Shown here in pieces: positions 1 through 20,229 of a DNA stretch of 20,229 nucleotides. This stretch comes from a virus (taxonomy: Duplodnaviria; Heunggongvirae; Uroviricota; Caudoviricetes). Where the stretch lies: the IMG/VR virus record IMGVR_UViG_2609459769_000010; one strand, given 5' to 3'. Made by a program: the position numbers and the translations under genes. The number at the start of each line of letters is the position of its first letter. The first letter of the stretch is position 1. The notes beneath the pieces were generated by a model. That model saw only the letters and a program-made list of their open reading frames with translations. It was not told the DNA's origin and ran no database searches.

Positions 1-930
1 ATGAAGATATCTCTTGTAGTTCCTGTCTTCAATGAAGAAGAAGCGATACCAATTTTTTATAAAACGGTACGTGAATTCGAAGAATTGAAGTCATATGAAG
101 TGGAAATTGTTTTCATAAATGACGGCAGCAAAGACGCTACGGAGTCAATTATTAATGCTCTGGCTGTTTCAGATCCTCTAGTTGTTCCGCTGTCATTTAC
201 ACGCAACTTTGGTAAAGAACCAGCATTGTTTGCAGGGTTAGACCATGCAACTGGCGATGCCGTGATTCCAATTGATGTTGACCTGCAAGACCCGATTGAG
301 GTTATTCCTCATCTTATTGAAAAGTGGCAGGCAGGTGCTGATATGGTACTTGCTAAGCGCTCTGACCGTTCTACAGATGGAAGACTGAAGCGCAAGACTG
401 CTGAGTGGTTCTATAAACTTCACAACAAAATAAGCAACCCAAAAATTGAGGAGAACGTCGGAGATTTCCGACTAATGTCTCGAGGAGTTGTGGAAAACAT
501 TAAATTATTACCAGAACGCAACCTGTTCATGAAAGGAGTATTAAGCTGGGTTGGTGGTCGTACAGATGTTGTTGAATATGCTCGCGCTGAGCGCGTTGCA
601 GGAACAACTAAATTTAATGGGTGGAAATTATGGAACCTGGCTCTGGAGGGTATCACTAGCTTCTCTACATTTCCTCTGCGTATGTGGACTTACATCGGTC
701 TTTTTGTTGCCGGTTTGGCATTCATTTATGGTGCATGGATGATTTTAGATAAGCTGATATTTGGAAATGATGTTCCTGGGTATCCATCAATTATTGTGTC
801 TATACTATTTTTAGGTGGTGTGCAGCTTATAGGGATCGGTGTGCTTGGAGAATACATAGGAAGAATATATATTGAGTCAAAAAACAGACCAAGGTATCTT
901 TTAAAGGAAAATGACTGTGAAAAAAAGTAA
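1..930 (+). CDS. gtrB: Bactoprenol glucosyltransferase GtrB (GT2 family, O-antigen glucosylation/seroconversion)
   Basis: 309-aa ORF starting at window position 1. Translation recalled as near-identical to E. coli K-12 YfdH/GtrB and Shigella phage GtrB ([17 protein letters not shown]..., DGSKD, C-terminal TM helices). gtrA would lie just upstream, outside the window. Confidence 0.93.
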
Positions 931-2686: not shown

Positions 2687-2690
2687 TTTT

Positions 2691-2714
2691 AAGGCCTCTG
2701 TTGAGGCCTTTTTA
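2691..2714 (+). terminator. Rho-independent terminator of the gtr operon
   Basis: AAGGCCTC-TGTT-GAGGCCTT hairpin followed by TTTT, 5 nt after the gtrC stop. Confidence 0.6.
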
Positions 2715-2893
2715 CGTAATATTTAAATTCCTATACATTCCGTTACCATACCACGCTTGATCTGGATGCCATGGTTTCAGCGCATATGAATTCGTCTATA
2801 TTTATTAAAAATTTCTCTGGATATGCGGTAGATAGTGCTATTTATTCACATAATAAAATAAGAATAGATTTACTCGTATATAACTATGTTTGA

Positions 2894-2931
2894 TAGAATT
2901 AAGAAAACGGCTCCCTGTAGTGGAAGCCGTT
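2894..2931 (-). terminator. Possible terminator downstream of tailspike
   Basis: AACGGCT / AGCCGTT 7-bp stem (12-nt loop) followed on the - strand by TTTCTTAATTCT. About 80 nt past the tailspike stop. Confidence 0.3.
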
Positions 2932-3007
2932 ATAGTGCTGCAGTTTAAAGACAGATCAACCAATCCTTAACTGATCGGCATTGCCGGATGACCGGGCTTT
3001 TACATTT

Positions 3008-5212
3008 TTAGAATGCTTTCAATGTAGAGGCTTCTGAACCAGCACAGGTAAGAACTATCTTGTAGTACCCGGTTTTAGCCCCCCCTGAAACTCCTGACCA
3101 GTCAAAATTTAACTGCAATATAGCTCCGTTTTCATTTGGCGCACCGTAATTAACACTAGGTGCCCCTGGAGTAGAGATATCGAACATTGGCATATTTGCC
3201 GCCACTGAGTTTGCATTATACGAGTTGGTATTTCTGGCATCATTTCCTTGAGATGCAGTGATTACAGGCCATTCACCACCCAGAGCACTCTTTTGTACCA
3301 CCTCTATCGTTGCAGGTCCATTTCTCAACAACACTCCCTCGTAATACACATTTCCATGCGTACCACCGGTTCCATGTATTTGTATAGTGGCGAATCCGCA
3401 ATCAGCATAGTTGACTGATGGATCGAACGTCTGATGATACATATCAGATGGCAATGGCATAACAACTGCTGATAGTGTTGCTGGGGATGGCATTGATGTT
3501 CCTGTCCCAGTATTCATTGCAGGAACCCTGAGCTTTATTGATTCGGCTTTTCCACGAATGTTGCTGTATCCATCACCATGTGTATTGATCATATGAACAG
3601 GCCTAACAATTACTCCTTGAATAAACGCATTGCCATCAGCTATTTTTGCGAATGTAATTGTTTTCCATCCTCGACCAATCAATTGTCCGGCGTGCTTTAC
3701 CATTCCTGTGCTATTGCCGCCTCTATTACGAAGTGGCCATCCATATTGTTTTCCTTGATAACTTAGATTGCTACTAACTGGATAATTCAAATCGTAGTAT
3801 GGTGGCTTCGTTCCTGTGTAATTCTCAACTGGATGCTGAACCAGCATGCTTAAAACAACATCATCCCAACTGCCAATAACATCTATCTCAGCAGCTTCTG
3901 CATCAAGATAAAAGCTGTACGACATTACTGCGCTACCAGTTATCGGGAACTGTCCAGTTATTCGTTGTTGAGTATATGCAGCTCGATCAAAGACAATATT
4001 GAAATTGTTAGTAGGCAAGGCCATGCCAAAATGATCAGACATCATAGTGGGCCACATCATGATTTCTGATGATATTGGTTTGTACGATGGAGAAAGACCG
4101 CCAGCCATTAACATTGATGCGATTGCCTCACCCATTCGCTGATACCCCAATGAGTTAAAGTGGGTGCCGTCGCTTTGCACTACACCCTGTGGCATGTTGA
4201 ACTGAAGCTCGCCAAGGTTAATATGTGCGCAGTTATATAGTGTGGCTAAGTTTTTGACCTGAAATGCATATGACTGTTGGTAGTTAGCCAAGTTAAAATT
4301 GTACATACTAAAACTACCTGACGCAGTTTGACAAACAAGAACACCCATCCCCCAATCAATAAAGCGACGTATCAATTTTTCCATATACTCAAGGTACTCA
4401 TTGATGTCGCCCTCATTTGCATCGTTAATCGCATACATTAAAATTGCCAAGTCGCAATTAGGGTTTGTTTGCCAGTCAGGATTCTCATAGGCATTTTTTG
4501 CCGTGAAGCCTGAAATTGCCCTTACAGTTATTGATGTTGGCGCCCCTGATTGTTCCTCAAGATATGATCCAAGACGAACAGGATACGTAACTGTGGCATG
4601 AGTTGCGTTATCAGGGCTTCCTTCAACAATATCTGTTGATGAAATATCATATCCAGCAGTTATTGAATCTCCCTGACAAAGAATTTTTAATGGACTTCTT
4701 GATTTAATCAGGTAGTTTACATTAAGTAACATCCTTATATTTCTTGAACCATAGTTAGCAGAATCATTAGCAATATTACCTTTCGCATTATCATCAAGGG
4801 CTTCCTGAATCGTCTCTCCACTAACAGTGCCAATCATTCCTGCCCCAGTGCTTGATGTTAGTCTTTGTTCTAACTGATCGGGATCATACTTCAGCACATT
4901 TGGAAAATAGAACTGCTGCACACCGTACGCATCATAAACAGCCATAGAATGGCCTTGCACAGTTACGAATTTGGCAATCTGTCCGTTATATACCGGATAT
5001 CCGGCAGCATTTATAACGATTGGTTGTGACACTTGAACATGAGTGCCGTCTTCTCGTTCCAGATATACTGGAATCTGGTTTTCAGGATTTACCGGATCAG
5101 TGTCAATTTTACCGATATAAATTTTTCCATTGGCTACGGCTTTAAAAGAACGAGCCATAGTGAAGAGTTGCGAAGGCATCGATACGATCACATTGGCTGT
5201 AATGTCTGTCAT
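3008..5212 (-). CDS. Tailspike protein: P22 gp9-like N-terminal head-binding domain fused to SGNH/GDSL esterase domain and C-terminal beta-rich domain
   Basis: 734-aa ORF with GGAG RBS. First ~115 aa ([41 protein letters not shown]...VLKYDPDQ) match the P22 tailspike head-binding domain as recalled. Downstream carries SGNH hydrolase blocks: GDSIT (aa 181-185), INDAN (GxND-like), DGTHF (DxxH). Confidence 0.85.
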
Positions 5213-5270
5213 TTAATTTGCTCCAGATACAATGAATCGCCGCAGCGTGGCCACGGTGAATTTTGGGCAT

Positions 5271-5293
5271 AAAAAAACCCAGCCGAAGCTGGG
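5271..5293 (-). terminator. Rho-independent terminator between ejection-protein genes and tailspike
   Basis: On the - strand: CCCAGC-TTCG-GCTGGG followed by TTTTTTT. Confidence 0.6.
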
Positions 5294-5343
5294 TAGTTGC
5301 GTTGGTTATCTGTCAGTAGTTATGTGCTTATTTAATTATTTAT

Positions 5344-7188
5344 CTATTGTTCTGCTGTAATTTGGCTTGAAAGTATAGGGCGTATCGCATTTGCAGCATT
5401 ATTTAACGCTCTTTCATAAGCTGGCGTTCCTGCTTTGGTGTTTGCCAAACGAAGAAGCATATTCCTTGCGGCTTTGGACTCATACAAACGCATCATTGCA
5501 CCAAAACCAGCCTCAAGCCCCATTGATACACCAAGAGTCGCAGTTGCGCCAATCGTCCTTATCCTGTTGGCTTGCGATTGCCCCGTCTGAGTTACTACAT
5601 TTGCGGTGTCTGACCTTGCTGTTTGCTGTAGAACTTCATGAAGAGCATCAAGCTCTTTCATGTGCTTTCCAGAAAAAATAGTGTTGTAAATTTCACCGCC
5701 TGACTGAGATTTCAGCTTATTAACTTCAGTGATGAACTTGGCTGGAGAGTCACCGGCCTTTTCCGCTATTTTGCTGACGTAAGCTGCACGCATAGCATCT
5801 TTCCCTTTATCATCCAGTGCGCTCCAGATTCGTTTCACGTCAGATGGTTTTCTGCTTAATACAACGGTATTTATAAGTTCAGGACTGGCTTCACTGCTTG
5901 CCTTGTTGAGCTTGTTAGCAATGTTTTTATTAAGCACCTTATTATAAACGTTTGCATAATCGGAATTTGCTTTAAGGTATTTTGCTGCGTCTGATGCACC
6001 GAGGTTTTTAGCAACTGCGTTACGAAGGTCTTTTGACATTGCATTCTCTACCATATTGGTAGCTGCTTTTGCCTGGTTGGGGAAGACCATAGCATCTCCC
6101 TGAACATTAGATCTAAATGCTGTTCTGTGCTGACGCAAGAGATCAAACGTAACATCCAAATCAGTTGCAGGGTTTGCTAATTCTTCACGTAGGTTACGCA
6201 AGGATGTAAGCAGGCTTTGATTGGCAGACGTCCCAAGCCGTTCCTGTCTTGCGATCGCTGTATTCAGAGCATTCATGGTATTTGTGGTATCAACTGCGGC
6301 ATTACCCATTTTATTGGTGACGTCATTGATAACAGCGCCAGCGGCATCCTTCCGCCCCCTTAACGTGGTGGTCAGAGATTTCACCACATCATCAGGGTTA
6401 TACTCACCAAAACGGTCAAAATAATTGCTTACCAGTTTACTACGCGTTGCATATTGCTCCGCTCGCTTTGAGCCTGTCCCGAGCAAAGCACCCTCGGCAT
6501 CCTGAGTAAGGCCACGAGTGAAAGCATTTTTCGGCGGGATAACATCAGATGTCATTGGTGTCACGCCCATCGATTCTGATGTGGCAATTTTCTTCGCCAC
6601 TTCTGGCGCAATATCACCTTTTATAGCCGTTATTCCACGCCCTATTCCCTTTGCTGCTGCGGAAAGAACACCCTGAGCGGCAAGGTTAACTCCGGCATTT
6701 TTAGCTGCATTTTGTGCGAAATCGCCTTTCTGATTTGCGGCCTCTGCCAGTGAGCCAATAGCCATGCTTCCTGCCGTTCCAACTCCTGGAACTAAATACC
6801 CACCAATTGTTTCACCGGCTTGTGCGTATGGGTCTGTCGGTTTGTCTACTGGACGATAAACATCATCCAAAACTTTTGGCCCACCAAGCCCCTGACTGAT
6901 TGCATTAATCAGACTTGCGCCACCCTGCAATACGTCAAATGGTATGTTTACCAGACCACGACCAGCCTGTTCTGCAATTTGCCCTGCACTTTGACCACCA
7001 GTGAGCCAATCGCCAGCTTGTTGCATCAATGATGGTTCGTCCCGTGTTGGTGCATTATTGGACTGATTAACTGTTTGTTGCTGAACAGCCTGACCAGCAA
7101 AATACTCATCAATGGCGGTGCCAATATCTTCGGTGCTCGTACCATCAGGAAAGGTAAATGTCTTACCGTTTGCAGTTACTTTCATCAT
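5344..7188 (-). CDS. Ejection (injection) protein, P22 gp16-like
   Basis: 614 aa (P22 gp16 is ~609 aa by recollection). Last gene of the gp7-gp20-gp16 series. Start ATG overlaps the upstream stop (ATGA). Gly/Ala-rich, low-complexity composition typical of E proteins. Confidence 0.7.
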
Positions 7189-8591
7189 TCCACCGTAAAT
7201 TGAATGCCTGATTTTGAGGTATATGATCCAACCTGATTCCGTGGTTCTCCTGAAGGTGTCGAATCTTGTGCTGGCGCTGCGTCAGTATTCATTGACATAT
7301 ACCGCTTAACGGCACTCCCCAATGATTCACCTTTTTTAACATCCAACCCCAATATCTGACCGCCATTACGCGATTGTCCAGGGTTGCCATTCGCGCTCAT
7401 CCACTCGGCTTTAAACTCATTAAACTGCGCGTTTCGTCGCTCAAGGTTTGCCATTGCATCAAGCCATCTTGCGACCGTCTCAGGGTTATCCATGTCAGTT
7501 GGCGCACCCTGTCGAACGATCTCAACGTCTTTATCCGTTGCTGGGCCGGGAGGTAGGAATTTAAGAACCTGACTGTTAACAAGGGCATTTTGGCGAATGC
7601 GCAAATCACGCAATGTTGTATCGCTTCCGGTAAGTTTTGCGAACATGTTCTGTGCGTTACCGAACAAACCTGTCGTTGGTTTTTCTGCTCTGAACTGTTG
7701 AGCAAGCGCACTCATAGAATTGGCTGAGTTTGATGATGCTGTAGCATTGTTTACAGCCGTCTCGATGCCTTTTTCCATGTTTACTGACAGCTTAGGTGCT
7801 TCGCTAATCAACTGCTGAGCCTTTTCCTGCGCTTGCTGCATCTTAAACCCGAACTCTTGCTGATCCAGAGCCAAGCGTTGTGCTGCGATATTGTGCCCAG
7901 TCATTGCTGACTGATAGGAAAGGTTTTGCCCTCTCGCCTGAAGTGCTTCTCCAGCCTGATTGCTGCGGATTGTCTCTGCCAGTCTGCCTCGGTCAATTTC
8001 ACGACCAGCCATCTTGTCCTGAACATTGAAGTAATCAATCGGACCAAGAGCAGCCATCCCAAGGTGATCAACAAACTCACCAAATCCTGAAGGATTCTGC
8101 TGATACATCTGAGCAACGCTGTTAGGGTCAACACCGACGCGAGTCAGTTCCTTGGCGTTGTTTTGCAGCCATGATTGCATTGCTTCTGGAGACGATGACG
8201 CAAGGCGTGCGCCAGCCGCTAAGGTGCCGATAGAATTGCGCTGGTCTTCATCAATGAATCCCATGCCTTTACGAACGGATTCAATCTGGTCTGGATATTG
8301 AGTAGCCAACTGACGCAAAGCACCGCGATCACCAGACGCATAAGCATTAGCGTATGCCTGCTGAAATTCTTTCTGCCGCTGAGCCTGCTTTTCCTGCTGA
8401 AACACCCCCGCAATACCTGAAAGGCCTTGCAAAGCAGTCAGCCCAACATTGTTAGCGCCTGAACGCTCAATATCATTGTTCTGTCTGATAAGCTGAAGCG
8501 TATTGCCGATGTCATTTACGCTCGGAGCGTTTGAGTTGACACCACCGATACCAGCCAACAATCCGCCATTTGTTCCTTGCCAAGTAGCCAT
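7185..8591 (-). CDS. Ejection protein, P22 gp20-like
   Basis: 468 aa (P22 gp20 ~471 aa). Gene order and size match the P22 E-protein cluster. Confidence 0.7.
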
Positions 8592-9298: not shown

Positions 9299-9757
9299 CT
9301 ATCTCCCGTGATTCAGGAAGTCGATTAGTTCTTCACGTGTGGCGCTGTAAAACGTCACGTCATCCACGCCTTTGAAGTATTTCTTGATGGTTCCTACACG
9401 CTTAAGGCCAATCATCGCGCAATACATCTGACCGTGGCGGAATTTGCGTGCAGCGAACGATGTGACGCACTGAACGGTGGTGTTAGTCAGAATGTATCGC
9501 CAGAACGCCAGCCCGATTTCCTTGCTGAATCCGCGAATCTCTGGCAGGTACATGGCGTGGCAATCGAATGTCAGCGGCTGAATCTCCTGATAGTAAACAA
9601 TGCCGCCGAACTGCCCGTGCACGTTCACCTCAAAGTAACGGCAATCAGGTTTGTAGTCGTATCCATCACCGTTGTTGCTCCCGGCGATAATGTCAGGGTG
9701 ATTTCCTACTGCTTCGATCAGGTCGATGTTTCGCGTTGGTTTGAACTGAATCATCAC
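9299..9757 (-). CDS. P22 gp14-like virion protein
   Basis: 152-aa ORF between the tail needle and gp7-like genes, the position of gene 14 in P22. Start overlaps the tail-needle stop. Confidence 0.5.
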
Positions 9758-10602
9758 TGCTCCGCGATTATCTTGATGGTTGTGGCAGTAAACGCCGCAC
9801 CATTTGACTGAATGGTTAACGTGCTGCCATTTGTGGCAAGAAAGCCGTCTTTATCCACGCTGAAGAACGTAGCTAACAAGATGTTATCGGTTGTTGTCGC
9901 CGAGTTGCGACTGCTTACCAGTGTGTCAGGAACAGAACCGGAAAATGTTAGTTGCATTGACCTGTTGGCGGTTCCACTGGGCCACGTCCCGACAATCGAC
10001 AACTTGAAGAACAAGGTTTTGTTCTCGTTGAACACAACCATCTTGTTGTTAACGGTGTCGAAGAATGGTGCCAACGTGCCGGATGACGGCGTGAGCGTTT
10101 TCAGTAGGCTAACAAGGTTGGTCGGCGCTGTCGGAATGGTTACTGATACGCCAGAGTAAACAACCTCTGACTTCTTGCGCGTGGTTGCATACTCCAGAGC
10201 ATCAATGCGCGATTCATGATCTGAAACCTGCGACTCCAGCGACTGAACTCTTGTGTCAAGCGACGCAATATCGCTTTCATTCTGAGCTATTCGTGTTTCA
10301 TGTTCCTGAAGAGTTGATTCTGCCTGGCTGATTCGCTCCTCATGATTAACAAGCGTTGCTTCCGCAGCAGAAATTCGCTGCTCATGGTCAGCGAGAATCA
10401 CATCCTGCTCATCGTTCCTGACCTGTGCATCATAAGCGCCTTGTCCGGCCTCGTTGGCCTTGTTCGCCACATTACCAACATCAGCACCCTGTGCAATAAC
10501 GTAAAGCAGATACGACTGCGAGAAGATATTGCGTGGAAGGATTGATGTATCGAGCCGCGTCGCCTGAACAATAACAGGTGTATTGAGATTCGAATCCGCC
10601 AT
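9754..10602 (-). CDS. Tail needle protein (P22 gp26-like) with C-terminal knob domain
   Basis: 282 aa. N-terminus [43 protein letters not shown]...[18 protein letters not shown] matches the P22 gp26 N-terminus as recalled. Followed by a trimeric coiled-coil segment with a 14-aa periodic HExRI repeat, then a ~140-aa C-terminal domain (Sf6-type knob architecture). Confidence 0.85.
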
Positions 10603-12024
10603 TACTCAATCCTTATCTGAGCGCCAGACAGAGTGACAGGTGACTTCGTGATAACGCGCAATTTGAAGCCAACATTTTTCCTGATGCGCCCTACCCGCTT
10701 CCACAAAACGCGTTTGTCGTAAACGAACGGTTCATTCTGCTCAATCATCTGCTCACGCCCGTAATTGATGCCGTCAGTGGTTGCAGAGAGAAAAAGGCGG
10801 TCAGCATACTGCGCAACTCCAGTTGAAGATTCAACCTCAAGGTCGAACACCCGGGCGTTATCCGCTTTGAACAACGGAGTAAACAGCAGGTGTTCCTGTT
10901 GAAGCCCATACTGGCTGCTGATATCGAACTGCAATTTCCCGGTCACCGATTCCAGCTTATCGCCGCACGTTATTTGATTGCCTTCGTAAATGAAGTCGAT
11001 AGCGCGGTACACATCGTCATACAGGCCTGTTTTCAACACACACCATTGCGGACCATTGGCGCTTGAAGATGCGTCGTATACGAGGACATGGCGCGGAAGA
11101 TGGATAATCAGCAACTCATGCGCATCAAACCGCAACGATTCCATCACACCATCAGCCAGTTCATCAGCAGTGTAGGAGCGGAGGATTTTCTCAATGCTCG
11201 CGCTGGCGATTGGTGACACCTGACCGGAGCCGATGATGTATACAGATGGCGCACCCGTTGCCGGATTGCTGATGAACGCATACGAATCAGCAAACGGCGT
11301 TTTGCAGTAAGTCCCGGCGATGCCTTTTTGCACCATCAGTGATGGCTGTGCGACATACAAAGCAGCACCAACGGTGGTTGCGCCAGTCAGGGAGAAATAT
11401 TCAATAGTCGATGAACCAAAGCAGACGATGAAGTCTCGCCATGTCCCGATACCGATGATGCCGTCCGGCTGAGACTCGGCACGATATTGTGCGCTGTAAC
11501 GGTCAGGATGCGATTCGTCTTCAAGGTCAGTGATAAACCATGAATCAGTGCCGTCTTTTGACCACGCATAACGCCCACGTAAGCGCGTAATGTCACGAAC
11601 CGAACCTAACTCATACTGAGTGAATCCGCTGTCTGTAGGCCAGTTTGAGACTGTTTTAACCGTGCCATCATAGCGATACTCGACCAGTTGACCATTAACA
11701 CCTACCGCCTGTGATGTCCGACCATGCGCCATTGATACACGACCACTTCCGGCAACATCACCGACTTCACTTTCTCCTTTGTACAGCTTGCCGCCACACA
11801 CGCGATAAACAGCACTCTGCGCCATGTTGTACTCAACTCCGCGCGATACGCCGTTCACATCAGAACGTTTGGCAATGCCCGGGAATGAGCGAAGATAGTC
11901 TGTAAACACCAACAAGGCGCTCTGCGAACGCCCTGTTATTTGCTGCGGCTACCACTAATCCCTCAGGTGAATCAGGGTGTCGAATCTCTTCTTTTTCCTG
12001 GTATTTCTTACGACGTTTTGTCAT
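10602..12024 (-). pseudogene. P22 gp10-like tail hub/head-completion gene, reading frame interrupted (two frames)
   Basis: The 437-aa gp10-like frame (10602..11915) has no ATG; an in-frame TAG lies at 11949-11951. A strong AGGAG RBS plus ATG at 12024 opens a second frame (MTKRRKKYQEKEEIRHPDSPEGL...) that stops at 11860, overlapping the first. Span from 12024 to the gp10-like stop is ~473 codons, close to the P22 gp10 length (~472 aa, recalled). Frameshifted gene, sequencing indel or deletion fusion are all possible. Confidence 0.5.
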
Positions 12025-12058
12025 AATTACTCCTGTGGATTGATCCAGTCTTTCTACA

Positions 12059-12337
12059 TCAGGCCTCAAAACTGTTGCAGCAGTCTTGAGGCTTTTCTTT
12101 TGTCAGCACCATGGCTACTTTCTTTGCCAGCTCCGCTAATTCCTCGTCTTCAACACCCCACTCCAGCACAGCCAGAAGCATGGCCATCTTTGGGATAAAG
12201 CTGTCTTTCCATCGCGAAATTTGCGATTCATTAATCCCTAACGCGTCGGCAACCTTTCGCTGACCACGTACAGCAATTCGATTCAGGATGTTGCTTGTAA
12301 TTGCATTCGCTTTCTTGCGAGTACTTGTAAGTTGCAT
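12059..12337 (-). CDS. cII: Transcriptional activator CII
   Basis: 92-aa product (MQLTSTRKK...SQISRWK...MLLAVLEWGV) aligns with lambda CII (QISRWK, MLLAVLEWGV). The 5' leader ...TTATCTAAGGAAATACTTACATATG is essentially the lambda cII leader. Confidence 0.85.
   Translation of the reverse strand: MQLTSTRKKANAITSNILNRIAVRGQRKVADALGINESQISRWKDSFIPKMAMLLAVLEWGVEDEELAELAKKVAMVLTKEKPQDCCNSFEA
12291..12330 (+). promoter_or_regulatory. Candidate CII-dependent promoter (pRE-like) TTGC-N6-TTGC motifs
   Basis: On the + strand inside the 5' end of cII: TTGCTTGTAATTGC (perfect TTGC-N6-TTGC) and TTGCGAGTACTTGT. Lambda pRE sits in the same place and orientation. Confidence 0.3.
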
Positions 12338-12416
12338 ATGTAAGTATTTCCTTAGATAACAATTGATTGAATGTATGCAAATAAATGCATACACCATAGG
12401 TGTGGTTTAACTTGAT

Positions 12417-12446
12417 GCCCTTTTTCAGGGCTGGGATGTGTAAGAG
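12417..12446 (-). promoter_or_regulatory. nutR (boxA + boxB) N-utilisation site
   Basis: - strand reads GCTCTTACACATCCCA-GCCCTGAAAAAGGGC: boxA-like GCTCTTACA and a boxB hairpin identical to lambda nutR boxB. Lies between cro and cII. Confidence 0.8.
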
Positions 12447-12456
12447 CTGGAATGTC

Positions 12457-12672
12457 TTAAGCGGCTTTGTGTTCCGGCGGGAACACGTCATCAAGACTGA
12501 CTTTTGCGCCTAACTTGTTTAGGCACTCAACAAGAGCACGGCATGTTTTAAGGTCTGGGAAGCGACGACCAGATTCCCAATGTCCGATAGCTCCCTGTGT
12601 GCATCCAACTGCCTTAGCAAGTGTTGTTTGAGAGATATTCAGTGACTCTCGATATTTTCGTAGGTTGCTCAT
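12457..12672 (-). CDS. cro: Cro-like repressor (HTH, XRE family)
   Basis: 71-aa product MSNLRKYRESLNISQTTLAKAVGCTQGAIGHWESGRRFP..., with GGAGGG RBS. Divergent from cI, first gene of the pR transcript. Its recognition-helix motif TQG-IGHW..G.R.P is shared with the cI N-terminal domain. Confidence 0.75.
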   Translation of the reverse strand: MSNLRKYRESLNISQTTLAKAVGCTQGAIGHWESGRRFPDLKTCRALVECLNKLGAKVSLDDVFPPEHKAA

Positions 12673-12698
12673 ATGCCCTCCATAGTAACCATGAAGCA

Positions 12699-12727
12699 AT
12701 AATACGATATGTACTTTTAGAATGCAA
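12699..12727 (-). promoter_or_regulatory. pR promoter with embedded operator (oR1-like)
   Basis: - strand reads TTGCAT - 17 nt (TCTAAAAGTACATATCG) - TATTAT. The spacer and -10 contain AAAGTACATATCGTATTAT, almost the same as the element in pL. Confidence 0.55.
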
Positions 12728-12783
12728 ACAAAAAATACATCTTGTGCATGGATGATTTTAGTACAGAGCGTAATAATAAGGGT

Positions 12784-13443
12784 ATGAAAATGAAATGGTA
12801 TGAACTGGCTAGATCCAGAATGAAAGAGCTCGGCATAACTCAAGAGAAGTTAGCTGAAGAGCTTGGTATGACGCAGGGTGGAATTGGTCACTGGTTGCGC
12901 GGATCTCGTCATCCATCTCTTGACGAGATTGGTGTGGTGTTTAAATACCTTGGTATTGATAACGTCTCATTCAACCACGACGGTACATTTTCACCTGTTG
13001 GCGAATACTCATCTGCCCCCGTTAAAAAACAATATGAGTACCCTGTTTTTTCTCATGTTCAGGCCGGGATGTTCTCGCCTGAGCTTAGAACCTTTACCAA
13101 AGGTGATGCGGAGAGATGGGTCAGCACAACCAAAAAAGCCAGTGATTGTGCGTTCTGGCTTGAAGTTGAAGGTAATTCCATGACCGCGCCAACAGGATCC
13201 AAGCCAAGCTTTCCTGACGGGATGTTAATTCTCGTTGACCCTGAGCAGGCTGTTGAGCCAGGTGATTTCTGCATAGCCAGACTTGGTGGTGACGAGTTTA
13301 CCTTCAAGAAACTGATCAGGGATAGCGGTCAGGTGTTCCTACAGCCACTAAACCCGCAATATCCAATGATTCCATGCAATGATAGCTGTTTCGTAGTAGG
13401 GAAAGTTATCGCCAGCCAGTGGCCTGAAGAGACATTTAGTTAA
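12784..13443 (+). CDS. cI: CI repressor (S24 peptidase/LexA-like C-terminal domain; distinct N-terminal HTH domain)
   Basis: C-terminal ~130 aa ([115 protein letters not shown]...) nearly identical to lambda CI as recalled. N-terminal ~90 aa HTH domain is unlike lambda CI. Start chosen at ATG 12784 (MKMKWYEL...); the upstream TTG/ATG at 12742/12748 are alternatives. Confidence 0.85.
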
Positions 13444-14114: not shown

Positions 14115-14357
14115 ATGAGAGTAAAAACTATGGGCGCAAGCCCATTAAGTGGTCGTATTTTTCAAGGAACATTAAACACTGAAAAAGGAATGTGGGTAGG
14201 AAAGAGAGAAGATGTCACCGATCAGGCAGTGAGGGCAGTAGCCGAACACATGATGATAAAAGACCAGAAATATGCATACGAAACGAAGGATGGCAAATGG
14301 CTGATAATAAGTCATCAACTGGTTGATAAATTACCAGAAGAGTTTGTTGATGGTTAA
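14115..14357 (+). CDS. Hypothetical protein (80 aa), early-left cargo gene
   Basis: ORF with GAGGA RBS directly after N. AT-rich. No recognisable motif. Confidence 0.5.
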   Translation: MRVKTMGASPLSGRIFQGTLNTEKGMWVGKREDVTDQAVRAVAEHMMIKDQKYAYETKDGKWLIISHQLVDKLPEEFVDG

Positions 14358-14414
14358 ATTTGCTTTGGAATAAGCAACAGAATAAACACTGCACTGAATT
14401 ATTTGAGGTGAGAT

Positions 14415-14885
14415 ATGACAAAATCATGGAGCGTACCTTTTCCTGAATCAGAAACTGAACATGATGGAATGCCTGTTTTCTGGAGATTCCAAGCGACAGT
14501 TGAAGAAGATGGAATCAAAATATTCGCACTTCAATATATAGCTTTTCATCAGACAGAGCATTATGCATGGTTGGTTCCTGCGCATTGGATTGTTGATTTT
14601 AAACCAGCACCAAATCAGTGGTTACAGGAATGGAAACAAAGGAGAAATAGATATGCAATTAAGAAAGTAGCAAAAAAGGCAGAAAGATCTTTTGCGTTCC
14701 CGACGAAGAAACTTGCCATTGAAAGTTTATTGCGCCGGAAGAAATACCATTTGATGAGAATCAAACAAGATTTGGCTGTTGTATCAACTCTTGTTGATGG
14801 GATGAAGAATATTGATACATCAACACCAGATATTGAATATAACTTTGGACACAACCAAGAAACAGAAAATTGGGTATTTTATTAG
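14415..14885 (+). CDS. Hypothetical protein (156 aa), early-left cargo gene
   Basis: ORF with GAGGTGAGAT RBS. AT-rich, basic Lys/Arg-rich central segment. Followed by a strong terminator. No recognisable motif. Confidence 0.55.
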   Translation: MTKSWSVPFPESETEHDGMPVFWRFQATVEEDGIKIFALQYIAFHQTEHYAWLVPAHWIVDFKPAPNQWLQEWKQRRNRYAIKKVAKKAERSFAFPTKKLAIESLLRRKKYHLMRIKQDLAVVSTLVDGMKNIDTSTPDIEYNFGHNQETENWVFY

Positions 14886-14989
14886 TACGAATAAGCACTG
14901 TGTATTCATTCCAACGAGTGAATACACGGAGCAATGTCGCTCGTAACTAAACAGGAGCCGACTTGTTCTGATTATTGGAAATCTTCTTT

Positions 14990-15017
14990 GCCCTCCAATG
15001 TGAGGGCAGTTTTTTTT
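14990..15017 (+). terminator. Rho-independent terminator (tL-like)
   Basis: GCCCTC-CAATGT-GAGGGC hairpin followed by AGTTTTTTTT. Confidence 0.65.
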
Positions 15018-15030
15018 GACGGAGTAAACG

Positions 15031-15279
15031 ATGATAAAAACTGATTACCCTGCAGAGCTTAAACAAAAAGTAATAACAGCAATTAAATGCTCTTTTATCT
15101 CATGTCGTACAGATGAAGAACGATATGTCGTTGAGTGTGCAATTGTCGAGTTTCTCACAGCGATGGAATTTACCGCTGCAGAATCAATAGATGTATTAAA
15201 GCAATCAGACGGAAATGATATTGAAACGGATGATGTTATTGACCGACTAATAAAATCATTCGAAGAAGAAATAGAGTAG
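15031..15279 (+). CDS. Small acidic hypothetical protein (82 aa)
   Basis: ORF with GGAG RBS. Highly acidic (many D/E, C-terminus EEEIE). Sits just upstream of the cIII-like gene. Confidence 0.5.
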   Translation: MIKTDYPAELKQKVITAIKCSFISCRTDEERYVVECAIVEFLTAMEFTAAESIDVLKQSDGNDIETDDVIDRLIKSFEEEIE

Positions 15280-15362
15280 CCGCCTGAGCGCGGCTTTACC
15301 GCATACCAATAATGCTTCACGAGAGGCATTTTCGTTATGCAATCAAATATAAGGAGTTACCC

Positions 15363-15497
15363 ATGATGCACTTTCAGCTCGCGGGTAGCGGCGTCATGTC
15401 CGCTTTCTACCCGCACGAATCTGAATTATCACGCCGAGTTAAACAATTAATCAGAGCAGCAAAGAAACAACTGGAGGCGTTATGCGCAATGAAATAG
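15363..15497 (+). CDS. cIII: CIII-like protease (FtsH) inhibitor
   Basis: 44-aa product MMHFQLAGSGVMSAFYPHESELSRRVKQLIRAAKKQLEAL... resembles lambda CIII (AIAGWPVAG...PSESLLERITRKLRDGWKRLIDIL). AAGGAG RBS. Position between N and kil. Confidence 0.55.
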   Translation: MMHFQLAGSGVMSAFYPHESELSRRVKQLIRAAKKQLEALCAMK

Positions 15498-15634
15498 CCA
15501 TCAATCACCAGATGCTTCGTGCTGCACAAAACAAAGCAGTAATAGCCAGATTTATTGGTGATTCCAAAATGTGGCTTGAAGCAAATAAAGCGATGAAATC
15601 AGCTATCAACCTTCCGTGGTATCGCAGGAAATGA
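15482..15634 (+). CDS. kil: Kil-like host-killing (FtsZ-inhibiting) protein
   Basis: 50-aa ORF overlapping the cIII-like 3' end (below the ORF-track size cutoff): MRNEIAINHQMLRAAQNKAVIARFIGDSKMW... The IA.FIGD.KM motif and the position immediately after cIII fit lambda Kil as recalled. Confidence 0.45.
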   Translation: MRNEIAINHQMLRAAQNKAVIARFIGDSKMWLEANKAMKSAINLPWYRRK

Positions 15635-15709
15635 GTTTTACAGATAACTGGTCAGACGAAGAATTCATTCGTCAGATGAAAGATTTAATCGGTAACGAAG
15701 GAGATATTC

Positions 15710-15880
15710 ATGCCACTTGCAACCACAGTGAAGGAGAGCAAGTTACAGAGACGCATGTACACGCAGCAGGCGTTAATGTATCGCAAGAAGGGAGATCGTG
15801 AAGGTGTTCGCGTATTTTTAAATGCGGCAAAGACCGAAGTATTAAACCAGCGTTATTTCCTTGGGCCATGTCCATTCTGA
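15710..15880 (+). CDS. Small basic protein (56 aa) immediately upstream of the annealing-protein gene (position analogous to P22 arf)
   Basis: ATG preceded by AAGGAG at 7-nt spacing; product MPLATTVKESKLQRRMYTQQALMYRKKGDREGVRVFLNAAKTEVLNQRYFLGPCPF. An overlapping alternative frame (15631..15801) starts as ATGA coupled to the kil stop; which one is translated cannot be resolved by eye. Confidence 0.3.
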   Translation: MPLATTVKESKLQRRMYTQQALMYRKKGDREGVRVFLNAAKTEVLNQRYFLGPCPF

Positions 15881-15888
15881 GGTGAATT

Positions 15889-16596
15889 ATGGATTTGAAC
15901 AAATTCGATGAGCCATTCAGCCCTGAAGATATCGAATGGCGAATACAGCAAAGCGGTAAAACACGCGATGGAAAGGTGTGGGCTATGGTGCTGGCTTATG
16001 TCACGAACAGAGCAATCATGAAACGCCTGGACGATGTTTGCGGCAAAGCAGGATGGCGCAATGAATACCGCGATATTCCCAACAACGGAGGCGTTGAATG
16101 CGGCATATCAATCAGGATTGATTCCGAATGGGTAACCAAATGGGATGCTGCTGAAAACACGCAGGTAGAAGCCGTCAAAGGTGGTCGTTCAGGTGCAATG
16201 AAGCGTGCTGCCGTTCAGTGGGGAATCGGTCGGTATCTGTATAACCTTGAGGAAGGTTTCGCACAAACATCTCTCGATAAAAAGCAGGGATGGCACAGGG
16301 CAAAACTCAAGGATGGAACAGGATTTTACTGGCTCCCTCCATCGCTGCCGGGATGGGCAATCCCAGCATCAGATAACAAACCATCACCAGAAAATACCAA
16401 CCAGAAATCTCCATCGGTTGACTGCGAGCAAATCCTGAAAGACTTCAGCGATTATGCATCAACAGAAACTGACAAGAAAAAACTCATCGAGCGTTATCAG
16501 CGTGACTGGCAATTAATGGCTGGCAACGAGGAGGCGCAGGCTAAATGCGTCCAGGTAATGAACATCAGAGTTAACGAACTAAAACAGGCGGCATAA
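15889..16596 (+). CDS. Rad52/Sak-type single-strand annealing protein (phage recombinase)
   Basis: 235 aa with GAGGTG RBS. Conserved core ...AMVLAYVTNRAIMKRLDDVCGKAGW...AMKRAAVQWGIGRYLYNL... typical of phage Rad52/22-family annealing proteins. Sits directly upstream of ssb. Confidence 0.75.
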   Translation: MDLNKFDEPFSPEDIEWRIQQSGKTRDGKVWAMVLAYVTNRAIMKRLDDVCGKAGWRNEYRDIPNNGGVECGISIRIDSEWVTKWDAAENTQVEAVKGGRSGAMKRAAVQWGIGRYLYNLEEGFAQTSLDKKQGWHRAKLKDGTGFYWLPPSLPGWAIPASDNKPSPENTNQKSPSVDCEQILKDFSDYASTETDKKKLIERYQRDWQLMAGNEEAQAKCVQVMNIRVNELKQAA

Positions 16597-17070
16597 ATGG
16601 GAAGTAGAGGCGTAAATAAGGTGATCATTATTGGTCGCCTTGGGCATGATCCAGAAATCAGATATTCACCATCAGGAACGGCATTTGCAAACCTTACAGT
16701 TGCTACGTCAGAACAATGGCGTGATAAGCAAACTGGAGAGCAAAAGGAGCAGACGGAGTGGCACCGTGTGGTAATGAGCGGGAAACTGGCAGAAATTGCC
16801 AGCGAATATCTGCGAAAAGGCTCTGAGGTTTATCTTGAAGGCAAATTGCGGACAAGAAAATGGCAGGATCAAAGCGGACAGGATCGGTTCACTACCGAAG
16901 TTATCGTGGGCGTTGGTGGAACCATGCAAATGCTTGGTGGCAAGCAAGGAGGCAATGAACAGTCTTCACCTCAGCGAAATAACGGCCAGCAACAAAGACA
17001 GCAATCTCAGCAGCATGGGAATCACAGCGAACCACCTATGAACTTCGACGATTCGGATATTCCGTTCTAG
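16597..17070 (+). CDS. ssb: Single-stranded DNA-binding protein
   Basis: 157 aa. OB-fold N-terminus ([36 protein letters not shown]...TEWHRVV), Gly/Gln-rich linker and acidic C-terminal tail DDSDIPF. Confidence 0.92.
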
Positions 17071-17079
17071 GAGCTGAAT

Positions 17080-17559
17080 ATGAAAATCTGCTCAAGATGC
17101 CATCAACAGAAGGAAGAAAGGGACTTTCAAATCAGAAGAGCATCCAGAGATGGATTAACTGCCGCTTGCCGGGCTTGCCTGGCTGAATACGACAAAGAAC
17201 GCGCTGGATTGCCACATCGAGTATCAGCAAGGAGAGAATATCAATCATCGGAACGCGGAAGAGAACGGTGTAACGCAGCCAAAAAGCGGTTCATTCAGAG
17301 CAACCCATGGAAAAGAAAAGCGCACATCATTGTGGGTAATTTTTTGCGCGACGGTAAGCTAATCCGACCACCACAATGTGAGTGCTGCGGATCAGAATGT
17401 AAACCACAGGCGCACCACTGCGACTACAGCAAACCAACCGATGTGATGTGGCTCTGCAAGTCATGTCATGTCGAGTGGCACAAACATAACAAACCTATCT
17501 ACCCAGACGAGGAACCAGTAACTCTCCCCTTCCCTCGTCACGCTATTCACGCAATTTAA
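17080..17559 (+). CDS. Cys-rich zinc-finger / HNH-like endonuclease family protein
   Basis: 159 aa with AGGAG RBS. CxxC...CxxC at the N-terminus and C-terminal CECCGSEC...AHHCDY...WLCKSCHVEWH (His-Asn-His-like metal-binding motif). Confidence 0.5.
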   Translation: MKICSRCHQQKEERDFQIRRASRDGLTAACRACLAEYDKERAGLPHRVSARREYQSSERGRERCNAAKKRFIQSNPWKRKAHIIVGNFLRDGKLIRPPQCECCGSECKPQAHHCDYSKPTDVMWLCKSCHVEWHKHNKPIYPDEEPVTLPFPRHAIHAI

Positions 17560-17572
17560 TCAGGAGAAAACC

Positions 17573-17869
17573 ATGCCAGCGCCTCTGTATGGTGCGGACG
17601 ACGCACGCCGCTGTTCCGGCAATTCCGTATCGGAGGTGCTGGATAAATTCAGAAAAAACTACGACCTGATAATGTCTCTACCGCAGGAAACGAAAGAGGA
17701 AAAGGAATTTCGCTATTGTATATGGCTTGCAGAGAAAGAAGAACGCGAGCGAATTTACCAGACATCAATCCGACCATTCCGCAAAGCCACATATACCCAC
17801 TTCCCTGAATATATCGACCCGCGCCTGCGTAATTACCGCTCACGCTATGGCGCTATCAGTAATGACTGA
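17573..17869 (+). CDS. Hypothetical protein (98 aa)
   Basis: ORF with AGGAG RBS. Tightly packed in the early-left operon. Confidence 0.5.
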   Translation: MPAPLYGADDARRCSGNSVSEVLDKFRKNYDLIMSLPQETKEEKEFRYCIWLAEKEERERIYQTSIRPFRKATYTHFPEYIDPRLRNYRSRYGAISND

Positions 17870-17879
17870 GGAATTAACA

Positions 17880-18170
17880 ATGAAAACAATGAAGCTAAAC
17901 ATCGACCTCGGCAAATACGTTATTACCGGAACAAAACACGACCTGATTCTTAGTGAAAGAGGAATTATCAAAGAAGGCGAGAATGCAGGGAAAGAAACAC
18001 TAAGCCGTATCGGTTATTACAGCAAGTTTGAGCATCTGGTCAAAGAGTTATGCAACCGTGAAATCCTGTTATCTCAGGCGCAGACGCTACAGGATATTCA
18101 GCAACATATCGAGACTTTAGGTGTGTCACTTAGCATGGCTATTGACCAGTTCGTGGAGAGTAAATCATGA
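17880..18170 (+). CDS. Hypothetical protein (96 aa)
   Basis: ATG at 17880 preceded by GAGGA ([14 protein letters not shown]...). The ORF-track start at 17727 overlaps the upstream gene and lacks an RBS. Confidence 0.5.
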
Positions 18171-18334
18171 GAGGACTTGCATACAATACCGGCATTCTTC
18201 CGGCAGAAATGATTATTCGCCAACGCGTAAAGCCAATGCCATCGAGAGAGGAATTGCTTAAGAGAAATTCTTTTCCGTCAGTAAATCAAAACAAATATCT
18301 GAATGCGATGTGGCGCAAAGGAGGCAAGCAGTGA
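18167..18334 (+). CDS. Small hypothetical protein (55 aa)
   Basis: ATGA overlap with the upstream stop and GTGA overlap with the downstream start (translational coupling). Below the ORF-track cutoff. Confidence 0.3.
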
Positions 18335-18630
18335 GTGTATATCTTATTGATAAACGTCGACGTGGGCAACAAATACCACCTGTAGGAATTCCGAATCACA
18401 CATGGTTTTGCGTACTTGATATCGATGGTATGGATGCGTTGGTTGACACTCTTCATTACTGCGATACCGCAACAGCTACTCCGGCGAAAGCAAAGAAAAT
18501 GGCTGCTCTGATAGAAAACTGGACTCCACCTGATGGTTGGTGCAATGGGAATGATCGAGATTGGCATGAAAAAATGAAGGGCTATATCTGCGATTTTTTA
18601 CGTAAATGCAACGGATTCAGGGTGATGTGA
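18331..18630 (+). CDS. Hypothetical protein (~99 aa)
   Basis: GTG start preceded by AAGGAGG at 6-nt spacing; [33 protein letters not shown]... Confidence 0.45.
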
Positions 18631-18631
18631 C

Positions 18632-19186
18632 ATGAGCAAAATTAACTATCAGGCACTGCGTGAGGCGGCAGAGCAGGCAATGCATGACTACTGGGGGTTT
18701 GATGCGGACCTTTTCCATGAGCTGGTAACACCATCGATTGTGCTGGCACTACTGGATGAACGGGAAAGAAACCAGCAATACATCAAACGCCGCGACCAGG
18801 AGAACGAGGATATTGCACTAACGGTTGGGAAACTGCGTGTTGAGCTGGAAGCCGCAGAGAAGCGCAACGCAAAATTACAAAGCGAGAATGCATACATCCG
18901 CAACCGGTTCAAAGAGCTGGACCTGTTAATCGGGAAAAACATTCTGGTCATGCAGGCTGCGATTATCGAATGGCAGGAAACTGGCGACGCTAAAAGCGGA
19001 CTGGCATGGATTTATAACACACTGTTTGGTCCTGGCGAATTGCCGGACGAATCTGAGAAAGATGCTCAGGCCTACTTTAATCGCAAATATGCACCGATTG
19101 ACGAAAAGCTTATGGCGCTTCACAAGTGGTTTTGGGAACAAAGTGAAGCCGAGCTCGCCGCTGGCATTCGCATCAAAGGAGAGTGA
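18632..19186 (+). CDS. Ea22-like early protein (coiled-coil)
   Basis: 184-aa ORF packed against its neighbours. Central coiled-coil (KLRVELEAAEKRNAKLQSENAYIRNRFKELD). Position and architecture resemble lambdoid ead/Ea22 proteins; assignment from recollection only. Confidence 0.4.
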   Translation: MSKINYQALREAAEQAMHDYWGFDADLFHELVTPSIVLALLDERERNQQYIKRRDQENEDIALTVGKLRVELEAAEKRNAKLQSENAYIRNRFKELDLLIGKNILVMQAAIIEWQETGDAKSGLAWIYNTLFGPGELPDESEKDAQAYFNRKYAPIDEKLMALHKWFWEQSEAELAAGIRIKGE

Positions 19187-19187
19187 T

Positions 19188-19739
19188 ATGAGCGCTATAA
19201 CCGATAAGAAACAGTATCCAGGCGAGCAATATCTTAATGAGCTAATCACCAACATAGAGTTTGCTGCAAGGGCTCCAGTTGAAGTCGTGAGAGCGATGGC
19301 AGCAGAGCTACAGAAGCGGCGCGAAGCTGATAGTGCAGAACCTGTAAGCCAAACTTACAAGTTGCCTCCCCTGTCATCCAACGAAGTAAACGACGCGGCA
19401 TGGAAATTACACAACATGCTGACTGAACACGGCCCGCTAAATGGGCGTCAGTTCAACAATCTGAAAGGTTGCTTCTATGAGGCATTAAAGGTCGCAATGC
19501 GCAACTATCCGGTAACTCCGGATGGTTGGATAAGCTGTAGTGAGCGAATGCCGGATACCAAAACAGCCGTTCTTGTTGCCGTGGAGTTTGACAGGAAAGG
19601 TGACTGGCGAATGAAATGGGCGACTTACATCCCGGGGCATCCTGACGCTAATGATGGGTGGATAATTCCTGGTGCGTCGTGGAAACCGTCACACTGGATG
19701 CCGCTACCAGAACCGCCGCAGGAGGTTAACCGTGGCTAA
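19188..19739 (+). CDS. DUF551-domain phage early protein
   Basis: 183 aa. C-terminal W.SCSERMPD...VLVAV...GW...HWMPLPEPP resembles the DUF551 signature common in lambdoid b-region proteins. Confidence 0.45.
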   Translation: MSAITDKKQYPGEQYLNELITNIEFAARAPVEVVRAMAAELQKRREADSAEPVSQTYKLPPLSSNEVNDAAWKLHNMLTEHGPLNGRQFNNLKGCFYEALKVAMRNYPVTPDGWISCSERMPDTKTAVLVAVEFDRKGDWRMKWATYIPGHPDANDGWIIPGASWKPSHWMPLPEPPQEVNRG

Positions 19740-19771
19740 CCTGCAACTTGCCGTCAAAGGTGAATAACAAT

Positions 19772-19826
19772 CCTCGCATTCGCGGGGATTTCTTTTATCT
19801 GAACTCGCTACGGCGAGTTTTATTTT
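19772..19826 (+). terminator. Tandem Rho-independent terminators
   Basis: CCTCGC-ATTC-GCGGGG + ATTTCTTTTAT, then CTCGC-TACG-GCGAG + TTTTATTTT. Confidence 0.5.
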
Positions 19827-19839
19827 ATGGAGATGATAA

Positions 19840-20007
19840 ATGCACTTCCGAGTCACAGGTGAATGGAATGGAGAACCATTCAACAGAGTTATCGAAGCAG
19901 AGGACATCAACGACTGCTATGACCACTGGATGCTATGGGCGCAGATAGCACATGCAGACGTAACCAATATTCGAATTGAAGAACTGAAAGAACACCAAGC
20001 CGCCTGA
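19840..20007 (+). CDS. Small hypothetical protein (55 aa), terminator-flanked
   Basis: GGAG RBS + ATG; MHFRVTGEWNGEPFNRVIEAEDINDCYDHWMLWAQIAHADVTNIRIEELKEHQAA. Preferred over the overlapping ORF-track call 19748..19948, which has no RBS. Confidence 0.35.
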   Translation: MHFRVTGEWNGEPFNRVIEAEDINDCYDHWMLWAQIAHADVTNIRIEELKEHQAA

Positions 20008-20025
20008 TGGCGGTTTCTTTTTTCC
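20000..20025 (+). terminator. Rho-independent terminator
   Basis: CCGCC-TGAT-GGCGG followed by TTTCTTTTTT. Confidence 0.55.
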
Positions 20026-20037
20026 TGGAGAATTAAG

Positions 20038-20229
20038 ATGACCGATACCAGCCTGATTCCTGAGAAAGAAGTGATGAACAAGCTCGGTGTTTCATCACGT
20101 CAGACAATCTGGAACTATACCAAACGGCACGGATTTCCGAAGCCAGTCAGAACCCACCCCAAATCATACCTTCGTGAAGCTGTTGAAGGGTGGATTCTTA
20201 ACGGTGGCGTTAATCAGAAATGCTCCTGA
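20038..20229 (+). CDS. xis: AlpA-family excisionase/transcriptional regulator (Xis)
   Basis: 63-aa ORF with GGAG RBS, ending exactly at the window end. Winged-helix AlpA-like sequence (...KEVMNKLGVSSRQTIWNYTKRHGFPKPV...). Last gene before the expected integrase. Confidence 0.6.
   Translation: MTDTSLIPEKEVMNKLGVSSRQTIWNYTKRHGFPKPVRTHPKSYLREAVEGWILNGGVNQKCS

Follow-up and report, generated by a model that had tools for sequence, protein, structure and literature searches.

Gene content and insertion site of the element

The window, i.e. the whole stretch of 20,229 bp that was analyzed here, carries a P22-like prophage lying in reversed orientation. The tail, needle and ejection block is encoded on the minus strand together with cII and cro; cI, N and the early-left genes lie on the plus strand (Table 1). 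Membership in the P22-like group is evident from both homology and synteny. The sequence shares 92-95% DNA identity with Sf6, HK620, CUS-3 and others, and the Pfam families Phage_stabilise, Phage_tail_NK, P22_gp7, Inj_translocase, Phage_P22_gp16 and Head_binding are all represented. The nearest sequenced phage is Sf6, with about 95% identity across the common parts.

Table 1 Features of the window (positions and strand refer to the window; aa, amino acids)
Feature	Position	Strand	Basis and remarks
gtrB, bactoprenol glucosyltransferase, 309 aa	1..930	+	PF00535; gtrA-gtrB-gtrC synteny in many loci
gtrC-type serotype-specific glucosyltransferase, 591 aa	911..2686	+	PF14264, E 2.8e-24; low-GC region, GC 0.32
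Tailspike, 734 aa	3008..5212	-	P22-type head-binding domain, residues 1-113; GDSL/SGNH esterase domain, residues 177-364
Terminator-like hairpin and T-run in the gp16/tailspike gap	5277..5294	-	Consensus scan only
gp16-like ejection protein, 614 aa, full length	5344..7188	-	PF26808, tblastn
gp20-like ejection protein, 468 aa, full length	7185..8591	-	PF16928, tblastn
gp7-like ejection protein, 231 aa	8601..9296	-	PF25688, tblastn
gp14-like protein, 151 aa	9299..9754	-	98.7% identity to the entire Sf6 gene 10 product; PF11039
gp26-like tail needle with knob, 282 aa, full length	9754..10602	-	96.8% to the Sf6 needle, residues 1-282; PF16532
Gene 10 remnant, codons 42-472	10602..11897	-	DNA homology to Sf6 6959-8456 ends at 11897
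Chimeric 54-codon ORF	11860..12024	-	Gene 42 (HK97 gp53-like) codons 1-43, then 11 out-of-frame gene 10 codons
Deletion junction, TA common to both parents	11896..11897		gp10 ...AAGA-TA-TCC; gene 42 ...TGGC-TA-GTC
cII, 92 aa, intact	12059..12337	-	PF05269, E 1.9e-44
tR1-like terminator (~12367-12395) and nutR with lambda-type boxB hairpin (12417-31, GCCCTGAAAAAGGGC)	12367..12448	-	
cro, 71 aa	12457..12672	-	HTH_3
cI repressor, 231 aa, intact	12748..13443	+	HTH PF01381 and S24 autopeptidase PF00717
N antiterminator, 108 aa	13778..14104	+	PF11438, E 1.5e-26
Early-left operon: cIII, kil, Erf/Rad52-like, SSB, Abc2, Ead/Ea22, DUF551, xis-like HTH	14115..20229	+	

The coordinates of tR1 and nutR were carried over from the Sf6 annotation via a 94% alignment, and the sequence itself was read directly. 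The content of the early-left operon, which has the xis-like HTH gene at the window end, was taken from the gene and Pfam table of an identical locus (L004). Among isolated phages, the best match to the tailspike is Salmonella phage g341c with 41% identity. Rfam (at gathering thresholds) and ARAGORN gave no match in the window. The initial annotation had described the immunity, recombination, ejection and receptor-binding genes as intact-looking. All retained genes, including int, xis and the immunity genes, are full length except gp10.

The prophage is inserted between dacD and sbcB of the E. coli/Shigella chromosome. gtrA lies near dacD, and a 392-aa integrase gene adjoins sbcB just past the window end; gtrA and the attR side are located outside the window as well. 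With dacD on one side and int and sbcB on the other, the element is integrated into the chromosome, as is expected of a defective prophage. A 12-bp direct repeat (TATTTGGTACGC) occurs at each end of the element, which we regard as weak evidence.

Two truncated genes abut after cII

The initial annotation had noted a ribosome-binding site and a start codon 34 bp after the cII stop and had assigned them to a gp10-like gene. Both elements are present at this position (AGGAG and the ATG at 12024), but they open a homologue of gene 42 rather than gp10. In Sf6, gene 42 (27852-28013) is a 53-codon HK97 gp53 homologue situated between cII and the replication initiator, and residues 1-43 of the chimeric ORF are identical to its product. 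The gene 10 homologue of Sf6 (6836-8254) comprises 472 codons, and the window copy begins at codon 42, in a frame that differs from that of the chimeric ORF and with stop codons upstream. It has neither a start codon nor a ribosome-binding site of its own. The longest possible gp10 product would be a protein of 407 aa starting from an internal ATG (11825) with a poor ribosome-binding site; it spans positions 64-469 of the 469 positions of Pfam Phage_stabilise. As the start and the N-terminus are lost and the best product could only come from this weak internal ATG, gp10 is, judging from its sequence, a pseudogene.

Alignment to P22-like genomes, as the initial annotation had proposed, located the breakpoints at 11896/11897. 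Megablast of positions 10400-12900 gave a match to Sf6 8456-6959 that stops at window 11897, and megablast of positions 11850-12450 gave a match to Sf6 27980-27426 that begins at window 11896. A three-way alignment revealed a clean switch from one parent to the other at a common 2-bp TA microhomology. Only 162 bp lie between the cII stop and the start of the gp10 homology, and no repeat of 12 bp or more was found at the joint. Compared to Sf6, positions 27981-39043 and 1-6958 are absent, together 18,021 bp; the IS911 of Sf6 accounts for 1,249 bp of this length. The deletion thus measures about 18.0 kb relative to Sf6, or about 16.8 kb without IS911. Since both joint genes are truncated in the window, while their intact versions are about 18 kb apart in Sf6, the segment is missing by internal deletion.

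A near-complete relative occupies the same site in E. coli JKHS016. There, cII is followed by a small ORF, the replication genes, nin, Q, the lysis genes, terminase, portal, coat, gp4 and gp10; this relative has a 1.9-kb portal-coat deletion of its own. The two abutting truncated genes, together with the presence of the segment in the same-site relative, indicate that essential genes were lost from a once complete phage.

Replication, lysis and head genes are absent from the window

tblastn searches with 35 Sf6 proteins gave matches exclusively to the gp10 remnant, the needle, gp14, gp7, gp20, gp16, cII, gene 42 and the head-binding domain of the tailspike. The Sf6 TerS, TerL, portal, scaffold, coat, gp4-like and gene 43 proteins had no match in the window, nor had the DnaB-like protein, the nin gene products, Q, holin, endolysin and Rz. 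Correspondingly, the Pfam table of L004, which covers all called genes, contains no replication, Q, lysis, terminase, portal, scaffold, coat or gp4 family. These results, along with the 162-bp gap to the gp10 homology, confirm what had been claimed earlier, namely that the replication-to-coat segment is absent after cII and that none of the missing genes appears elsewhere in the window. The proposed order of gp10-like, needle, gp14-, gp7-, gp20- and gp16-like genes and tailspike after cII also holds for the next recognizable genes. The full set of lytic-cycle modules is therefore not present in the window, and gp10 additionally lacks codons 1-41. With the genes for replication, packaging and lysis absent, nothing infectious is expected, and the element, unless a helper or a second copy of these genes elsewhere in the host supplied them, would be unable to replicate, package, build heads or lyse its host.

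Two other classes of elements were considered. Neither a primase, replication or helicase gene nor terS, a pac-bearing gene or capsid-remodeling genes were found among the called genes, which does not fit a phage satellite of the PICI or P4-like type. A tailocin does not fit either: lysis genes are absent, and a podovirus tail requires portal and gp4, both absent, as well as gp10, which is truncated.

The joint recurs in independent assemblies

As the window is a short predicted provirus out of draft assemblies, the joint might be an assembly chimera or a collapsed contig from a strain that truly carries a complete prophage, as the initial annotation had cautioned. However, nine contigs encode a protein identical to the 54-aa chimera; they come from NCBI submissions and from an independent Logan assembly of SRA reads. 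The joint carriers GCA_000711565.1, GCA_009767305.1 and Logan SRR1186796 have it on contigs of 162 kb upward, reaching 0.2-1 Mb; no publication on these assembly accessions was found. Two of the carrier loci match the window at 100% identity, and the third differs from it by 2 SNPs in 18,370 bp (99.989%), so that this one stems from a different isolate. An IMG/VR provirus of equal length (20,229 bp) differs by 1 base in 11,294. In addition, merely 2 bp are common to both sides of the joint, and no nearby repeat exists that an assembler could have collapsed. An artefact is thus exceedingly improbable.

A complete phage family might also naturally place gene 10 after cII and carry its head genes elsewhere, but we found no support for such a gene order. 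The joint is crossed by none of 50,697 phage records, including the 275 matching ones, and by none of 5,426 complete E. coli genomes. An exact 31-mer over the joint had no match in the GTDB representatives either, a set that is uninformative here because it holds one genome per species and therefore little E. coli strain diversity. Furthermore, both joint genes are truncated and fused out of frame, and dacD and sbcB delimit the element, leaving no room for head genes. With no phage record showing gene 10 after cII, we give this explanation practically no credence.

Hence, we conclude with a probability of about 0.93 that the window represents a defective (cryptic) prophage that arose from an Sf6/P22-like temperate podovirus (Lederbergvirus) by a single internal deletion.

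The deletion as prophage decay

Decay of prophages through deletion is well established (PMC6379469, PMC2629481), and different internal deletions are present in other P22-like prophages of E. coli. In F719, ral is joined to gp4, and in N273 an inversion is accompanied by deletions near cII, DnaB and gp4. CUVET21-147 has two deletions, and O104:H4 has an IS1-bounded loss of the immunity-to-lysis region. Gene 43 is joined to gp16 in L010 and to gp4 in L218, Q is joined to gp20 in L018, and the 5' end of O is joined to gp4 in TW14425 and L219. This variety of deletions points to ordinary prophage decay. The deletion proposed in the initial annotation is supported, but as a case of common decay it is less surprising than was thought there. 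We also considered a hot spot for the left breakpoint near cII, as shared by the window, L010, TW14425 and N273. This clustering largely reflects how the loci were located, together with constraints of viability, and the left breaks in other remnants lie in ral, N, DnaB, Q or an IS1.

For the window, we propose one RecA-independent illegitimate recombination event at the 2-bp TA, which would have joined gene 42 codon 43 to gene 10 codon 42. The deletion would have taken about 17-18 kb. Lost with it would be the replication initiator and origin, the helicase, nin, Q, the late promoter and the lysis genes, and further terminase (including pac), portal, scaffold, coat, gp4 and the 5' part of gene 10. 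Illegitimate recombination in E. coli is RecA-independent and depends on microhomology and ligase (PMC11372144). Deletions of this kind would be expected among survivors of prophage induction, as they remove lethal functions and keep the repressor; with the repressor kept, Kil would stay off.

TA at the joints of P22-like remnants

Most of the joints resolved in P22-like remnants cross at TA, and some of the breakpoints are reused. The sequence at every joint was compared with that of its two parents; the loci had been located by similarity to the window, and the sampling is biased accordingly. Among the joints for which both parents are known, TA was found in the window, TW14425, L010, F719 (TAA), N273 junction 1 (GTAA), L018, L218 (gp4 x gene 43) and L222 (TAATC). 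At N273 junction 2, CUVET gp4 and L015, TA occurs at the end of the sole known parent. Of the first seven joints that were fully resolved, six had TA within the microhomology, compared to 4.4% in a random-join simulation (p ~5e-8), and the two joints resolved later (L218 gp4 x gene 43 and L222) have TA as well. Three joints are not at TA: that of JKHS016 (GC), CUVET N'|rep' (none) and the second junction of L218 (CG). One site in gp4 (GGTTTGGA-TA-A) recurs with five different partners, and a site in gene 43 was used twice, each time with another partner. The sequence next to TA is enriched for GGN/NCC, and one of the TA-joint events is an inversion (N273).

The 2-bp TA joint of the window and the reused TA breakpoints in its relatives suggest that breaking or joining was perhaps not random. 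A sequence-specific cutting or joining activity, or TA-centred fragile sites, may have produced the deletion instead of random microhomology joining. The frequency of TA at the joints, the reuse of the gp4 and gene 43 sites, the GGN/NCC enrichment and the inversion all point in this direction. On the other hand, three joints do not cross at TA, the two sites of the window itself were not found to be reused, the choice of loci by their similarity to the window is biased, and no responsible enzyme was identified. We therefore consider such a mechanism possible but doubtful, and it is only tentatively that the TA joint of the window may be assigned to a wider phenomenon in which a specific break or join activity, or fragile sites, gut P22-like prophages at TA within GGN-TA-NCC-like sequences. 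A literature search on TA-specific illegitimate recombination in prophages returned nothing relevant. The recurrent sites were also compared with invertase hix/gix half-sites, the dif/XerC arm, targets of IS630 and IS5, secondary sites of integrons and the attP core of Sf6, and none of these fits both the crossover position and all of the sites. If true, the TA mechanism combined with selection for surviving induction would repeatedly yield remnants consisting of immunity plus tail. TA-centred reused breakpoints, if they reflect a specific mechanism, would explain a repeatable disarming of prophages by bacteria.

Predicted behavior of the remnant

In the lysogen, cI would repress pL and pR, gtrABC would alter the O antigen, and immunity would persist. 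Upon SOS cleavage of cI, a transcript from pR, antiterminated by N, is predicted to pass cro, cII and the chimeric ORF and to continue into the genes for tail, ejection proteins and tailspike, which would no longer be Q-dependent. This prediction follows from the presence of N and the conservation of nutR/boxB and tR1. Strong terminator-like hairpins on the strand of the pR transcript occur only after gp16 and after the tailspike gene. Excision by Int and Xis could still take place and would lead to loss of the element. By recombination, incoming phages could acquire the tail, tailspike, gtr and immunity modules of the remnant (PMC3945230).

That the deletion put the tail genes directly under pR/N control might also indicate a domesticated or satellite-like element that is retained for a function, e.g. 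SOS release of the tailspike esterase and the ejection proteins, or mobilization by a P22-like helper phage. The tailspike of the Salmonella prophage BTP1 is reported to be capable of acting on the O antigen of its own host (PMC4413052), and at least three further remnants with immunity, cII and the gp10-to-tailspike genes are of independent origin (TW14425, L218, N273). This recurrence, however, is explained by viability, because a deletion must abolish replication/lysis and either keep cI or also lose pL, and the gene sets of other remnants are quite different. The element also has no replication module, pac, terminase or capsid-redirecting genes, and its gp10 is broken. Moreover, the carriers are clonal and near-identical, and gene intactness says nothing on selection. 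Retention for a function is thus very unlikely. As a defective prophage, the window is better described as a cleanly mapped and very recent single-step change from a temperate phage to a harmless passenger that confers immunity and serotype. In itself this is of little consequence, and it shows that provirus catalogues contain gutted elements.

Comparison with known phages and prophage remnants

Across the gp10-gp7 block and the greater part of the early region, the DNA identity between Sf6 (NC_005344) and the window is about 95%. Both have the same order of cII-gene 42 and of gene 10-needle-gp14-gp7-gp20-gp16-tailspike, and neither has immI. Sf6 has oac and an endorhamnosidase tailspike where the window has gtrABC and a GDSL-esterase tailspike. 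The integrase and the integration site of Sf6 are also unlike those of the window, which is without Sf6 27981-39043 and 1-6958.

Independent joins of cI-cro-cII-small ORF to gp10-needle-ejection genes, again with TA at the joint, occur in E. coli TW14425 (NZ_CP127265.1) and in the IMG/VR loci L218 and L219. In TW14425, the 5' end of a replication gene abuts the final 102 bp of gp4, and because this breakpoint lies within gp4, gp10 stays intact. Its small ORF belongs to the DUF2740 family, its integrase and site are different, and its tailspike region is disrupted by IS66.

The P22-like prophage of E. coli O104:H4 2011C-3493 was likewise rendered defective by one large internal deletion. This deletion is IS1-bounded, however, and removed immunity, replication, nin and lysis while all virion genes were kept, roughly the opposite of what is seen in the window. 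A broader resemblance exists to the cryptic lambdoid prophages Rac, DLP12, Qin and e14 of K-12 and to 'grounded' prophages, in which essential lytic functions are deleted and useful or harmless genes are kept (PMC6379469). The cryptic prophages of K-12 are old and heavily eroded, whereas the remnant in the window is one step away from a functional phage and clonal among its carriers.

TA at the rearrangement junctions

Among independent P22-like prophage remnants, TA is the crossover in most deletion and inversion junctions, often surrounded by a GGN-TA-NCC-like sequence. Five unrelated partners have been joined at the gp4 site …CATACGGTTTGGA-TA-A…, and one site in gene 43 has two joining partners; three other junctions have crossovers at sequences other than TA. 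Comparison of the junctions of P22-like remnants identified no mechanism behind the TA crossovers.

Features of the window and of related loci (L-numbers; L004 is identical to the window)
Feature	Position	Strand	Remark
12-bp direct repeat TATTTGGTACGC	L017:6084-6095 and L003:619-630		outside window
S24-peptidase-family ORF, 129 aa	L017:6118-6507		between dacD and gtrA, outside window
Tailspike	window 3008-5212	-	P22 head-binding domain and GDSL/SGNH esterase domain (residues 177-364)
15-bp inverted repeat, then TTTTCTTTT	window 12063-12101	+	antisense to cII 3' end
DUF551 gene	L003:2286-2528 vs L004:2286-2837		window 19188-19739
TA-junction survey sites	window 11896-11897; L023:12385; L013:15955; L019:11534; L218:8385; L222; L010:12647; L018:10779; L014:10146 and 11980; L015:14180
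P22-like remnant, E. coli O104:H4 2011C-3493 (outbreak strain)	L021, 1575668-1600967

Prophage ends and integration site

The first base of the window (1-20229) is that of the gtrB start codon (ATG), and its last is that of the stop codon of the xis-like gene; the IMG/VR provirus IMGVR_UViG_2617270950_000015 has the same length. The window is therefore a provirus prediction trimmed at gene boundaries, which left out int, gtrA and the att sites. The two copies of TATTTGGTACGC are located in the stretch from dacD to the end of the prophage and immediately upstream of int. By chance, about 0.05 such repeats would be expected; the repeat is a candidate att core for the dacD-sbcB integration site. 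The S24-peptidase-family ORF adjoins gtrA at the attR end and is also found in E. coli JKHS016, which carries a near-complete relative at the same site.

Retained genes and carrier variation

The hairpin overlapping the cII 3' end resembles a terminator for an antisense RNA of the lambda oop type. The promoter region of this putative RNA would still be found rightward of the joint; a search against Rfam gave no match. The DUF551 gene is called at 80 aa in carrier GCA_009767305.1, versus 183 aa, and may have been truncated by one of this carrier's two SNPs.

Among isolated phages, the closest tailspike is that of Salmonella phage g341c, with only 41% identity. By analogy with phage c341, the window tailspike probably deacetylates the O antigen rather than cleaving it.

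Comparison with the O104:H4 remnant

In the remnant of the O104:H4 outbreak strain, gene retention is reversed relative to the window: all virion genes are retained, whereas an IS1-bounded deletion takes the place of the immunity, replication, nin and lysis genes.
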